NCBI GenBank assembly: GCA_045632305.1
Contig: JAZQWL010000032.1
Coordinates: 39,393 to 103,392, forward strand
Length of the DNA: 64,000 nucleotides
Origin: Eubacteriales bacterium
GTDB lineage: Bacteria > Bacillota > Clostridia > Oscillospirales > CAG-272
Reading direction: 5' to 3'
Positions within the stretch are counted from its first letter, which is position 1; the number at the start of each line of letters is the position of its first letter. The notes beneath the pieces are model-generated. The model saw nothing but the letters and a program-made list of their open reading frames with translations. It made no database searches and was not told the DNA's origin. Below, one piece after another: positions 44,121-50,100 of this stretch. Both the position numbers and the translations under genes were made by a program.

Positions 44121-47100
44121 CTATTTACTAAGCATAATCTTACCGTTTTGCACCGTAAATCCGCACAATTCGGCAAGTCGCGCTCGTTTCTCCTTGCTGA
44201 TCTTAAGAGAAAGTATGTAACGAAGCAGAAGCTGATTTGCACGTGCGGCGCTAACACCCGGTATATCACCATCTTTGATAGTGTACCCCTGCGCGCAGAT
44301 AAGCAAAAGCTTCTCTGCGGGAGTGAGATCGATCTTGTTGATAGCCGCAACGACCTTGGCCCTCTTGCTGCCGGCAACCGCCTTACCGTCTCTTCCTATA
44401 TCGCTCTCGAAGCCCTTTGTCAGCGCGCGTACTACGGCAATCTTGTTAATACCGATTGCCTCGCAAAGCAAAACGGTGTTGCCATTATCTGCACCGAGGA
44501 CCAAGCTCTCCGCTACGTCCTCGATAAGATCCTCCGCATAATCCATAGCGAGATCCTTTTGCTCAGCATTAAGCAAACTGAAGCCCTTCGCATTCGTGAT
44601 CTGCGCAGCATCCTTTGCGAGCTTCTCACGCGTCTGCTCAAGCGCCACCTTCTGCTCCTCAGAGAGAGTGTACATCTGATCCCCGACAAATACCGTATAT
44701 CCTGCATCCTCAAGATCTCTCTTGATAGCAAGATATTCGCTTGTAGCCGCCCTGACAATAAATCTTCTCTCGAACTTACCTTCGTTCGCAATCTCGGTTA
44801 TAATACTCTGATACGTCTTCGCATCCCCCTCAAGCTTCGCCTTAGCGGCGGCCTCGATTCGAGGATCGTTATCACGGAGCGCAGTCCTGAGCGCCGTATC
44901 TGCGGAAGAATCGTCCTTATATCTGCCGCGTACTCTGTTGTAGTGCTTCGTATCGCCCTTTATAATAGCTTTATACATCTCGTCACCGTTAGTAATATCG
45001 TTGTCGATGATCTTGCTGATTATAAGCCCGTCAAAGCCCTCCTTTACCGCATATCCGAAGCCCGCAGCAGTCGCCTTCTCCCCTGATACAACTCCGCGAA
45101 CAACGTTTACCAAGCCCCTCGCATCACGAAGGACGTTTCGAAGCGGTATGCCAAACAAAGAAGCAAACGTTCCGCTGAAATCATAGATTTTCTCTCCCCA
45201 CGTTTTATTTTCGGAGGATAGCCCGGATATTGCGTTATAAAGATCCGCAAACACCGCCATGTCGGTTCTTTCAATGTCATAGCCCTGGCATATCGAATAG
45301 ATATCCTTGAGGAACGGGAACCACGTCATGGGATTCATCTGCTCCAAATTCTTGCTTATAAACGAGGTTGCGTACTTTTCAAAATACGTCTTATCCTCGT
45401 CATCATCACGCGCCGCATATACGAAAGATGACAGGAACGCATTCATAATAGATGCCACAAGAATAGATCCGAGGACCGCGCCGAGCTTCTTTTTCTGTCC
45501 CCTTGAGAACTGAACGGCCGCGAGGATAACTTCACTTGCGATCGTCGTGGGCTCTGCCATAAATGCGGTCGCCATCTTCCATCCGGTATCCTTAGAGCGC
45601 ATAAGCTCGCTTCGTGAAAGCGTGGAGTCGTAAACCTGAGTTTTTGTTATTACCTCAGTAAAGCGCTCCCCGGCAAGAGTGAGAAGCTCTTCCGAGTCTA
45701 TCTTAAGCTCGGGATGCTTGTCCGCCTGCTCACGCTTACACGCCTCAAATATCTGTATCCACGTAAGTTTGTCCGCCTCGGACGCTAAGAATCCATAAGT
45801 GCTCTCTCGGTAATCCTTATCCTTAAAGAAGCCCTTGAGCTTTTCCTTTGCGCCCTTGTATTCATTCGCGGTAATATAAGCACCGAGCGTCTGGCCCGTA
45901 CCGGTGTCAAAGCCGCCGATTTCCTTTATGATGGCCACAGGCGCGTATTTCTTGACTTGTTCCCAACGCTCACCGCTTTTATTAAGCTTAGGGATCGCCG
46001 CAAAATACTTGGGATTTATCATAGAGAACGCGCGCGCTATCGACGAGGGCTGTTGTGCTACAACCGAAAGCGACATTGCGACCGCGCTCTTCTTGTACTT
46101 GCTGATAAGCTTATCAAGTGTCTGAGAGGGCGCCGCGCTTACCGCGCCGCCGTTAAGATCTCGCAGGAGCTGTTCGATATACCTGATCGGAACGGTGCCG
46201 TATCTTGACCGTATAACCTCTTTCACGGAATCGTATTTGTTGATGTCAGCATTTGCCTTACCGTCAACGACGTCCGCGTCAAGCCCGAAGGAATTGCGGT
46301 AATTAAGCAGCGCATTCATGTCCTCCATGGGAAGCGTCATACCGTGATAAAGTGCCATATCGTTGACGTGACGCTTCCATACGTCCATAAAGTCCATCAG
46401 CACGAGAGGATTCTTAGCGTCGGGGGTCAACTTCTTTGTCATTCCCTTGTTTTTTATCTTGGGATCTCCCGTCTTGCCCGTCTGCGAATCAAGAAATTCG
46501 CTCGCTACGATCATAGGAAGATAGAACTCGTCGTTAAAGAGCTTAATTCCGTGCAGCTGCAACGATACCTCGTTGCCCTTTTCTGCAAGGTTCTTTGAGA
46601 GGTATTTCTGCATATCCTCAACGAAGCCAATCTGTTCGTCAGTCAGACCGAGAGCTGAAGCCATCTTCATAATGGTTATCTCGTCCACCGTATAACGTTC
46701 AGAATCCGCTACAAGACGCCCAAGCGTCAAACCCTTTCCCTTATCGTTCTTACCCTTGTAAGTCGCATCAGGATCGAATATAAAGCCGCCGTTCTTTAAG
46801 TGGTCGTGAGAGGCTTTGCGTCGACTGTATGCATATAGCGACATCTTCTGACCGAGCGTGAGCTGCACCTTTCTGCCGCCGATCTCGACCGTGTCTCTCG
46901 TATCCATGTCCCAACCGCGGAAACCGTATTTGTCTGCAACAGACCTAAAATACTCGCCCGCCTCAACGCCGTCACGTGCCCAAACATCCTCGCCGGCACG
47001 GAGATTTAAAAATGCTTGATTGAGCGTGTCAGAGCCCAAAATCTCAAAGAAATGTAGTGGCTTTAAGCTCTTCCATATCAAACTGTTATCTCTGAAGGCG

Positions 47101-50100
47101 GCCTGTCCGCTCTTCTGCGAGAGGATCTGCGGAACGTGCACACCGTCAAACTCGCGGATCATGCTTCTTCCGGCATCATCAAGCTTCATAGACTTGATAT
47201 CATGGAAAAGCTGATTTGCGTTATCGATCTTCTTTCGAAGCAGCGCATAATAATCTATCAATGCGTTAAGCTGGCCGAGATTCATCCTCTTTATAGGCGT
47301 GTCACCTATAATTTTGGTGTATTCTGCGAGCTTCTCCATAACCGTGCTGTCAAACACCCTCTTCGCAAGAGGATCGTCCGCACTCTCAAATTTTGCATAC
47401 GCCTCGTTGAGCGCGTCTATCGTCTTTTTCATATTAAACGTGCGCGCCTCAAGACGATCACGTTTTGCTTCAAGCGCAATAATCTTCTTGACGATATCCT
47501 CGGAGGGCTCCGTTGAATCATCTTTCTTGCGAAGCTTGTCGAGCTCCGTCTGCACCTCGTCAAGCTTAACCATATCCACGGTGCTTATATCCTCGGCGCG
47601 CATCGCATCCGCGATAATGCTCTGAACAGCATAAGGAATGTTCTTTTCCTTCGTCGGATTGAATAAAAGACGGTTGATTCTGCCTATCTGACGGCGCACC
47701 TGCTCGCGCTTTCGCGTTGCCTCGCGGCTCTCGGTCCGCGCCTTATACTTATCGTTGACGATCTTCTTGTATTCCTTGAGTTCCGCCTCAATGCTTTCGC
47801 GCTTGAATTCCGCCTCGACCTCCGCCTTGACGTTTGCTCTCACAGAAGTTTTTCCACTCTCGACTATCTTACCAAGCGCCGCATAGATCTGCTCATCCAT
47901 AACGGCAAGCTCCTCGCGGCTCATATCAAAGCCCGATTCCTGAAGAATCTCTGCGTGCAGCTTGTAGTACATCGTTTCAGTAAACAAATCAAAGCCCTGG
48001 GAATTCAATCTTACATTGTACCCACGCCACAGGCGATTTGTGATATCCTCGCGCATATCTGCAGGGAGCTTTGCGAGCGCATCGATTCCCTTTAGGGCTG
48101 CAACGACGTCCTTCTTATAGAATACCATGTCGCCCTTGTAATTTGCGCGTATCTGCTCAAGCTTACCGCGGCTGACCTCGATTTTGTCGGAATCGGCGAC
48201 CGTGGACGTACTCTGTTTTGCGGCATTTTTATCGGTTTTGGGTAAAGCATATCTTATATCAGGATTTGTTTTAGAAAATGTCCCGATATTGTCCGTAGCA
48301 GATTTAACCTGCTCAGGCCTGAGCGCAATATACGTTTCGACACTTCTTCCAAAGCTGCCGGAATCTTTTTTCAAAATCACGCCATCATACCCCTTGCTCT
48401 CTAAAACACGGGTTATTTCTTCCTTCATCTGAAGAGATAATTTGTTAGCTTTTTCAATCCATTCTTCCGTTAAAACGTCTTCTGCGTCGAATAATCGTTG
48501 GAACTCAGGGTCTTCAGAAATTTCACTTCTTGACGCACCCGGATGATTCTGCCGATAATCCTTGGCATACTGGCTCCAAGCGTTTGAAGCTTCGTCAATC
48601 TTTGCCTTGTATTCAACGGATAGATTATCTCTATGTCGGATAAGATCTGTATATTTACTTGACATGTTTTGAAGCTCGCGTACAAGTTCACCACGATTTT
48701 GGACTATCAAAGGATTAGCGATACGTGCATATAACGCCATCTGCTTCTTGCCTTTAAGCCCAATATCTTCACTTGTTGGTTTCATAAATATTCCAAACGG
48801 TGTTTCGTCGTCGTTCGTTCCTGCGCCCTCGTGGCGAGGATCAAAAACAGTGAATTCATTAGCCGTCTGATGATACAAGATTTTAGGCGTGCCATCAGCA
48901 TTAACAACCTTACTTTTTCCAAACCAACGCTTAAATTGTTGCGATTCTGTAACATTTTTCAATTTCGTCTTGACATTTGATCCGTTATCGCGTATACTAT
49001 GTACGAAGCCATCTTGAGGCAGGACTCCGGACAATTGGTGTCCGGCCTTCTGTAGTAAAGATATGGCTTCTTTTTTATTCCAGTAAAACAACTCAATCGC
49101 ACCGTTAGAACTACTGTTAATAGCGTTATTCAACTGTATTAATACATTTGTTTTTGCAAATAGAGAAGTAATTGCATTGCTGTCGATAATTATATTGTTC
49201 GTTCTTCCTTTACCATCAACCTCAATAGCACCAATAATATTTTTACCATTGTGCTCTATTTTTAAGATCACGACTGCACGATCATTGTGATTTTTTGACT
49301 GCGATTGAATAATAGCAATAGGATTCTTAATAGCATTAGGCAAATCTTTGAGTAAAGTTTCTCCAATATGATGATCAATATCTTTTGTTCCATTCAAAGC
49401 ATAATCTACATGCGTTTGATTTATTGTTACAGGCAGTGAATTAAACCCGACTTTTTGCCAAATTTCCGGTGTTTCACCAACAAGCAAGGTATCATTTTTA
49501 GATATAAGCCCTTTCTTATAATCATCAATCTGCTCTGCAAACGATTTATTATAGTCATATATGGCATTTTCTTTCGCCGCCATCCTCTCCGTAACCTGCA
49601 TGTTTTCATCATTCATGCTCGTTACGGCTTTTTCTTTGCCCGGAGTCGTTTCCAACGCACGTGAAAGCGCGTTATTGCCCTTGTTTCGCGCCTCGAGCTC
49701 CTTGAACAGCTTACGGTAATGATAAAGGAATTTGCGCGATTCGGACGAAAGCTCCTTTATTGACGAATAGTCCTTCACGGATCTCGTAAAGAATCCAAGG
49801 ACCTTCTGCTTGAACGAGGGCTCCTCCGAGAGAATATATTCCCACGCTTCAGCGCTGTTGAATACCGTCTCGGCGCCATGCGCTGCGACCTCTTCTTCAT
49901 ATACGGCATTACGGGCATCATTTTTCTTTTGCTCTGCGGCATCACGCGCACTCTTGAGCACAGGGTTCTCCTGCTTGCCCGAAAGAATTCGCCCGAGCTC
50001 TGCATCCTGATCGGCCTTCTTATCACGCGCCTCGTATCTCTTGCGGATATCCTTCGCTTCCGTATCACTAACAAGCTTCATTGCCTGATTATAGAGCTTC

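Follow-up and report, generated by a model that had tools for sequence, protein, structure and literature searches.

A conserved C-terminal module and a lineage-bound end domain in a giant polyvalent protein from phages of gut Clostridia

The stretch of DNA analysed here, referred to as the window, comprises 64,000 nucleotides of contig JAZQWL010000032.1, assigned to a Eubacteriales bacterium. On its minus strand, at positions 44121..52580, it carries a giant open reading frame (ORF) of 2819 residues, which we identified from the ORF list, its translation and its matches to MuF_C and ART-PolyVal, and whose stop codon occupies 44121-44123. With residue i lying at nucleotide 52580-3(i-1), positions 44124-47183 correspond to residues 1800-2819 (residue 1800 at 47183), the part of the protein that an earlier reading of the same DNA, hereafter the original prediction, had set apart as its least explained portion. 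Upstream of that part, the cargo domains at 48276..49388 (minus) include a nuclease-type MuF_C/PBECR domain at residues 1065-1171 (Pfam, E 7.9e-15) and an ART-PolyVal ADP-ribosyltransferase at residues 1228-1435 (Pfam, E 2.1e-13). A zincin-like HEMFH motif (residues 812-816, nucleotides 50133-50147, minus) stands further upstream of MuF_C, and no peptidase model of Pfam or NCBIfam matched there. Since these three features occur in one ORF, the giant protein is, by its predicted domains, what Iyer et al. (PMC5512222) call a polyvalent protein. Phage_Mu_F (PF04233), the MuF/SPP1 gp7 head-morphogenesis family, gave no match with the whole protein at E<=1 or with 21 module sequences at E<=5.

The gene belongs to a late operon with the order small terminase (57956-58669), large terminase (56440-58011), portal (54437-56443; phrog_156, E 5.7e-39), a 616-residue protein (52587-54437), the giant gene, a 318-residue protein and the major capsid protein (41496-42542). 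The 318-residue protein (42564-43520, minus) has a very acidic N-terminal half with long runs of D and E and a helical C-terminal half, and it is probably the scaffolding protein, since its gene stands just upstream of the capsid gene; it had zero matches in PHROG or Pfam.

Behind the cargo domains, residues from about 1571 to 2620 (44721..47870, minus) constitute a conserved C-terminal module, delimited by a PHROG family, by homologues and by an AlphaFold model. PHROG 22978, a family of unknown function, covers residues 1591-2612 of the giant protein (E 1.1e-222; profile positions 2324-3276 of 3513), and the alignments of 66 homologues, at 31-46% identity, begin at about residues 1570-1600 and for the most part end near residue 2620. 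The module is followed by a more variable tail, and the C-terminal region consists of these two defined units. The original prediction had the region start near residue 1800, a boundary that cuts through the domain, since both the PHROG match and the homologue alignments start at about 1570-1600; the true beginning lies about 230 residues further upstream.

A profile built from 21 module sequences was run against 1.84 billion cluster representatives (clusters at 50% identity), of which 5,573 matched at E<=1e-3 and 3,745 at E<=1e-30, the best 150 matches being mostly proteins of 2,400-5,240 residues. For 131 of 136 long relatives (2,025-5,240 residues), the match, comprising module and end domain, stopped no more than 30 residues short of the C-terminus, with 957-4,233 residues standing before it. 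Pairwise BLAST coverage reached 0.97 for the profile-matched C-terminal part, against 0.44 for the N-terminal parts. Furthermore, the N-terminal Pfam content of the relatives varies, with ART-PolyVal in 12 of 26, MuF_C in seven, LPD3 in three and PBECR3 in two, besides methylases. The architecture of the family is that of a constant C-terminal unit behind changing enzymes, and the source names of ten relatives are either 'hypothetical protein' or the name of an N-terminal methylase only.

Within residues 1800-2819, whole-protein searches returned no match in Pfam, NCBIfam or the sequences of the Protein Data Bank (PDB). Profile searches of the PDB found only low-complexity and coiled-coil matches, to the N-terminal helices, with profile A1, and nothing below E 0.4 with profiles A4 and A5. 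Scans of individual members against Pfam (21 module and 17 tail sequences, E<=5) gave stray matches in one or two members, which were treated as noise, and no Pfam model, LPD families included, covers the module of about 1,050 residues. The expectation that no curated family or solved structure would account for the region was therefore borne out in Pfam, NCBIfam and the PDB; its wording as 'no recognisable domain', however, is too strong in view of the widespread and conserved PHROG 22978 module. Moreover, a tblastn search of 50,697 GenBank phage records with two module sequences returned no cultured phage with the module, and only one unannotated faecal fragment. The module is without a curated family, a solved structure or a literature description that we could find, though databases hold thousands of copies of it.

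The AlphaFold model of residues 1571-2640, computed from a 67-sequence alignment, had a mean predicted local distance difference test score (pLDDT) of 77.6 and a predicted template modelling score (pTM) of 0.73. It shows a confident, globular and almost all-helical fold, in which an N-terminal part of long helices (residues 1579-1885, 46926..47846, minus; model helices H9-70 to H281-315) is followed by a small alpha/beta unit (residues 1895-1956, 46713..46898, minus; model strands E325-386) and by helical domains up to the end. The alpha/beta unit coincides with conserved columns and bears a conserved MSLYAYS(K/R)R...GGF motif, and the most basic 40-residue window of the whole giant protein in a charge scan (net +10) lies at residues 1605-1644, nucleotides 47649-47768. 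Polar residues invariant in the module are GNE 2002-2004, H2071, Y2078, H2079, E2086, Q2177, R2183, K2219, D2225 and E2343.

A Foldseek search of the module against 350,542 PDB chains gave no match (best E 0.35, TM-score below 0.2), nor did that of the end domain (best E 0.40). Neither search returned the head-decoration or scaffolding fold whose appearance was to speak against the original prediction. Against BFVD, a collection of predicted viral structures, the module obtained 75 matches at E<=1e-3, the better ones reaching TM-scores of 0.4-0.6 with 10-38% identity. Every match was the second or third fragment of a giant protein from an uncultured gut, freshwater or marine phage, and the names are those of N-terminal domains ('Nuclease', 'PolyVal ADP-ribosyltransferase', 'MuF C-terminal domain').

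The tail of the giant protein is a compact end domain at residues 2628-2819 (44124..44699, minus), defined by AlphaFold, by 16 homologues and by its occurrence with head genes. The ordered part of the model, spanning the same residues, had a mean pLDDT of 84.9 and a pTM of 0.77 and is compact and mainly helical, with two small hairpins. The original prediction had described the last 120 residues or so as a helical tail; the peptide it quoted is present, from residue 2736, but belongs to this domain of about 190 residues. The same text had likened the tail to the C-termini of other large phage proteins, in agreement with a signature motif, INKIDLTPAEK at residues 2747-2757 (44310..44342, minus), that is common to most relatives. 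In the general form [IV][NDHE]x[LIMQY]x[LIVM][TSPDRN]xx[QE][KR], the motif lies in the last 70 residues of 96 of 138 long relatives, and in two of 6,612 other 70-residue windows. A profile of the tail matched the extreme C-terminus of 15 further family members, with matches ending about 10 residues before the stop, and a second group of relatives has another ending (...SYWKPLY...LYG...WLK). The full form found in the window, the last 60 residues or so included, has few homologues (16 in total). The tail might be taken for a separate gene in L007 and L008, but the splits there fall at runs of N in the scaffolds and are probably artefacts; three short proteins (P0069-P0071) nevertheless start at the same Met.

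The original prediction had also placed a transmembrane hairpin in this region, from two hydrophobic stretches at residues 2338-2358 and 2366-2390 (nucleotides 45405-45569). The module model does show a helix-loop-helix there (H772-789, residues 2342-2359; H793-821, residues 2363-2391), but only the second helix passes the hydrophobicity thresholds. Taking the Kyte-Doolittle maximum over 19 residues with a threshold of 1.6, the first helix (AEPTT..., 45504..45557, minus) scored 1.23 here, with a median of 0.72 in the family and none of 66 relatives at or above 1.6; it is conserved and too weakly hydrophobic for a membrane span. The second (45408..45494, minus) scored 1.95, with a family median of 1.91 and 63 of 66 relatives at or above the threshold. 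On the Wimley-White octanol scale, residues 2370-2388 sum to -6.9 kcal/mol and are the sole strong candidate in the whole protein, and the sum is below 0 for the first helix in 10 of 66 relatives and for the second in 65. A loop rich in K and R stands ahead of the second helix, in which some small and polar positions (G, S, N, S) are conserved and which AlphaFold sets within the confident globular helical fold. Directly after it, the alignments show a near-invariant acidic motif, RDDDEDK, in the family form RDDDED(E/K) (residues 2391-2397, 45390..45410, minus), and the arrangement of helix and acidic cluster is kept at only 22% identity in the pattern (N/K)DE(D/E)(E/D)E, as NRDEDEE in L007 and KDEEDEN in L008. 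The region thus holds a single conserved hydrophobic helix, flanked by charged residues, and not a two-helix transmembrane hairpin; no other part of the giant protein is a strong transmembrane candidate.

Module and end domain differ in the company they keep. In all seven other loci checked (L007, L008, L011 and L085-L088), a full end domain is followed by a homologue of the 318-residue protein, and, where the contig is long enough, by homologues of the 306-, 889- and 191-residue proteins and of the capsid protein, the last at 60-97% identity. In five further loci (L002, L003, L005, L006 and L010), the module is 35-41% identical to that of the window, with no other structural protein in common, whereas in the syntenic L007 and L008 it is only about 22% identical and was detected by profile (E 2.5e-20 and 2.1e-25). 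Because syntenic loci have divergent modules and non-syntenic loci similar ones, the module moves between phages that are not related, and the end domain remains with the head genes. Since the end domain, unlike the module, tracks the head genes, we infer that it contacts a lineage-specific assembly partner.

The closest relative, L011, is identical to the window at 96.6% of positions in the capsid protein, 86% in the 306-residue protein and 63% in the scaffold-like 318-residue protein. For the giant protein, the values are 89% over residues 2199-2340, 59% over residues 2501-2627 and 59% over the end domain. The C-terminal part of the giant protein diverges fast, as ejection proteins are reported to do relative to the portal (PMC8954989). 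In the compared segment (41496-45980), the scaffold-like protein (63%) and the end domain (59%) have diverged strongly and similarly despite the 96.6% identity of the capsid, and the two could be co-evolving partners.

A scan of 185,579 species genomes located 74 module loci, nearly all in metagenome-assembled genomes (MAGs) of gut Clostridia (Oscillospiraceae, Acutalibacteraceae, Faecousia and Ructibacterium). Two loci (L051, L062) lie in bins labelled Coriobacteriaceae and Bifidobacteriaceae, against Clostridia for all the rest, which could reflect a binning error or a wider host range. Two module copies (L045, L046) stand 40 kb apart on one Clostridia MAG contig (JAFTXX010000014.1, 71316-79337 and 111502-119523); their match statistics are identical, and a duplication or a pair of related prophages is the probable explanation.

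Among the non-syntenic loci, L010 is a 37-kb contig of a temperate phage with a giant gene of 4,423 residues. Its order is P22-type portal, Prp peptidase, a 346-residue protein, capsid, 'internal virion protein' (phrog_511), 'tail protein' (phrog_372), peptidoglycan-binding (PG-binding) protein, giant gene, tail fibre, amidase and recombinase, and no tail-tube, sheath, tape-measure or chaperone gene was seen on the contig. The giant gene therein occupies what we take to be the slot of the ejection-protein genes in the P22 gene order. In L006, as in L010, it lies downstream of the 'tail protein' (phrog_372). The giant genes of L005 and L006 directly precede tail-fibre genes with BppU_N-like N-termini, and in L003 such a tail fibre follows after one intervening 56-residue ORF. 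The L003 locus (1045-16733), about 15 kb in all, consists of integrase, repressor, the giant gene (split into 1729 and 981 residues), tail fibre, lysin and holin, and L002 (421-15302) of TerS, TerL, a giant ORF of 3275 residues, a BppU_N protein, holin and lysin. A fusion of the portal into the L002 giant ORF was ruled out by BLAST.

Several known systems resemble the giant protein in design. The polyvalent proteins described by Iyer, Burroughs, Anand, de Souza and Aravind in 2017 (PMC5512222) are likewise giant single chains with several conflict enzymes, encoded beside terminase and portal genes, for which loading into the head and injection along with the DNA are predicted; the C-terminal module of about 1,050 residues was not found described in that paper, and PF04233 was not detected in our protein. 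T7 gp16 is large, mostly alpha-helical and soluble, and its predicted transmembrane regions, folded inside the virion, change their arrangement once the protein has been ejected (PMC8954989). T7 gp16 and P22 gp16/gp20 share with the giant protein a large, mostly helical build, a place in the structural operon and fast divergence relative to capsid or portal. They differ in that one hydrophobic helix is present here instead of two regions, in that the cargo enzymes are here fused in one chain, and in the Clostridia hosts. No sequence or fold similarity to the module was found for the T7 and P22 ejection proteins by phmmer, profile comparison or Foldseek against the PDB.

The closest likeness in size is phi24B gp47, a polyvalent protein of 2,811 residues that is abundant in virions by proteomics and unseen by cryo-electron microscopy, and that its authors propose to be an ejection protein (bioRxiv 10.64898/2026.04.10.717836). 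It falls in the same class as the giant protein, but carries different LPD domains and infects a Gram-negative host; tried as a relative of the module, it gave an hhalign probability of 0.09 with a single-sequence target. The N4 virion RNA polymerase (vRNAP), gp50, is also giant, encapsidated and ejected, with separate injection, enzyme and encapsidation regions, the last of them C-terminal (PMC5512222; PMC13434306). Our protein lacks the RNA polymerase domain of N4 gp50, and the C-terminal 1,400 residues of N4 vRNAP gave an hhalign probability of 0.3% against the module, with a single-sequence target and hence limited sensitivity. The true family of the module is represented by PHROG 22978 and the C-terminal pieces of giant proteins in BFVD, yet these entries carry no function. 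The giant protein is not a detectable homologue of the T7/P22 ejection proteins, N4 vRNAP, phi24B gp47, MuF/gp7 or tape measure proteins; by analogy, it plausibly works like T7/P22 ejection proteins, N4 vRNAP and phi24B gp47.

On the basis of the analogy with phi24B gp47, T7 gp16 and phage PTXU04, whose polyvalent protein is needed for infection (PMC11879866), together with the anatomy of the module and end domain, we propose that these two units may be the carrier of a polyvalent protein packaged in the virion, similar in action to the ejection proteins of podoviruses but not homologous to them. We hold this reading with about as much belief as doubt, and infer packaging, ejection, a docking partner and membrane insertion as its components, a role after ejection being the most plausible one for the region. 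The end domain would dock the polyprotein to the head-assembly proteins of its own lineage, and a few copies would be enclosed in the procapsid. In the virion, the module would form a soluble globular helical body concealing its one hydrophobic helix. Upon infection, the protein would exit through portal and tail, ahead of or together with the DNA, and the module would rearrange, so that the hydrophobic helix and its basic and acidic flanks engage the host cytoplasmic membrane and help the DNA and the attached enzymes across. The zincin-like motif may afterwards free the enzymes.

A bolder form of the carrier proposal, which we regard as doubtful but conceivable, would cast the module, in one chain with its own cargo, as an equivalent of the podovirus ejectosome for Gram-positive hosts. 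The module would then be a self-delivering translocon, swapped as a cassette among phages of gut Clostridia, in which the hydrophobic helix and the RDDDED patch would form oligomers and so open the host membrane to DNA and enzymes, and the end domain would serve as a lineage-specific procapsid address label.

Some of our results weigh against a carrier role. Foldseek and profile comparisons gave no homology between the module and any protein shown to be packaged or ejected, and the single hydrophobic helix may simply lie buried in the core of a soluble domain. A review (PMC8954989) reports that ejection proteins typify podoviruses that infect Gram-negative hosts and that they are lacking in phi29-like phages, whose hosts are Gram-positive; the module family lives in Clostridia, which are Gram-positive. 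Three of the loci (L002, L003 and L005, the last at 1895-13907) belong to small prophage-like elements seemingly without portal and capsid genes, which could be decayed prophages, satellites or something else and are hard to square with plain delivery by a capsid. The 306-, 889- and 191-residue proteins of the window phage gave no informative matches that would point to a tail type. The many invariant polar residues of the module would also suit an enzyme, and an enzyme of undescribed fold, directed at a target in the host once delivered, or else at the DNA or proteins of the phage, and with no carrier function, is an alternative that we think unlikely but would take seriously. Invariant polar and charged residues are unusually numerous (motifs MG.KGNEVS, HVN.M..YH, QQPS..R, KE.G.FD, TQVYDS and RDDDEDE), and the retention of 35-45% module identity between phages with nothing else in common is how a mobile functional cassette behaves; several polyvalent-protein domains of unknown function look enzymatic as well (Iyer et al., PMC5512222). 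However, the module has no known catalytic motif and no family match in Pfam, NCBIfam or the PDB, about 1,000 residues of almost pure helix are atypical of an enzyme, and in 131 of 136 relatives its place is fixed at the very C-terminal end, whereas true enzyme domains shuffle.

The confident globular fold is also what an inert internal capsid protein would show, one that loads the enzymes or fills and organises the capsid interior, has no membrane role and uses its hydrophobic helix merely as core. The presence of one such helix only, whose conserved small and polar positions (G, S, N, S) are of a kind that favours packing between helices, and the co-occurrence of the end domain with head genes agree with this view, which we nevertheless find unlikely, as some 1,000 conserved residues are much for a loading tag, a role that the small end domain already fits, and as the hydrophobic helix is kept with its basic loop and acidic cluster even at 22% identity. 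Tape measure proteins are typically helical with a hydrophobic segment, and the giant gene lies upstream of BppU_N-like tail-fibre genes in L003, L005, L006 and L010 and downstream of phrog_372 in L006 and L010; a tape-measure-like or tail-lumen protein, long, helical, seated in the tail and leaving first to open the envelope, would fit these points. In the window and its true relatives, however, the gene stands between the portal and the scaffold or capsid genes, not in a tail module, the AlphaFold fold is compact (pTM 0.73) with no extended coil, the giant protein has zero tape-measure matches in PHROG or Pfam, and L010 combines a P22-type portal with no tail-tube or chaperone genes seen, all of which makes a tail-lumen role quite improbable. 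Finally, the one strong transmembrane candidate might anchor a protein that resides in the membrane of the producing or lysogenic cell, for instance in superinfection exclusion or lysis control, and L003 and L002 do adjoin lysis cassettes in reduced prophage-like elements seemingly without head genes. This we consider very unlikely indeed: the N-terminus has neither signal nor anchor, 2,360 residues of the protein come before the candidate helix, which has large soluble domains on either side, and the module is fused to enzymes known from injected proteins and encoded in a late structural operon.

Other features of the window deserve mention beside the module. At residues of about 50-320 (51621-52433, minus), the giant protein has an N-terminal region that is rich in Gly and Ala and mildly hydrophobic; it is kept in the otherwise unrelated giants of L010 and L003 (26-30% identity), and a separate 617-residue protein on the opposite strand in L005 also resembles it (26-30% identity). 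This region may be a second membrane-active or docking region. In the 600-nucleotide gap between the giant gene and the scaffold-like gene, a 66-residue ORF (43754-43954, minus) carries two CxxC pairs (CPHC...CRRC) and looks like a small zinc-ribbon protein, and the same gap in L007 and L008 holds small ORFs of 43-59 residues. Antisense ORFs at 42702-43991 (plus, 429 residues) and 44148-45086 (plus, 312 residues) have low-complexity translations rich in Leu, Cys and Arg and are almost certainly not genes. The neighbouring 306-, 616- and 889-residue proteins found nothing in the PDB and nothing informative in PHROG, the 306-residue protein having a single weak match there, to a family of unknown function, and the 191-residue protein had no informative matches. 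Elsewhere in the window, an elongation-factor-like GTPase (3549-5390, minus; phrog_6880, E 3e-128), an NrdD-type anaerobic ribonucleotide reductase with a thioredoxin-like end (8213-10687, minus) and PhoH (29250-30332, minus) are encoded, and these suggest that the genome of the window phage is well above 64 kb and that its host is an anaerobe.

In brief, many gut phages and prophages devote 10-35% of their genome to giant polyvalent proteins (8.5 kb in the present case; 13 kb out of 37 kb on the L010 contig). The enzyme domains of these proteins have already been catalogued, in contrast to the means by which a chain of 300-500 kDa would be loaded into a capsid and expelled through the tail. 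The present analysis isolates the constant part of such proteins, a module of about 1,050 residues and an end domain, sets its boundaries and separates the swappable module from the lineage-bound end domain. It also points to a means by which foreign proteins might be loaded into phage particles. Should a role at the membrane prove true, ejection-protein biology would extend to phages of Gram-positive anaerobes.

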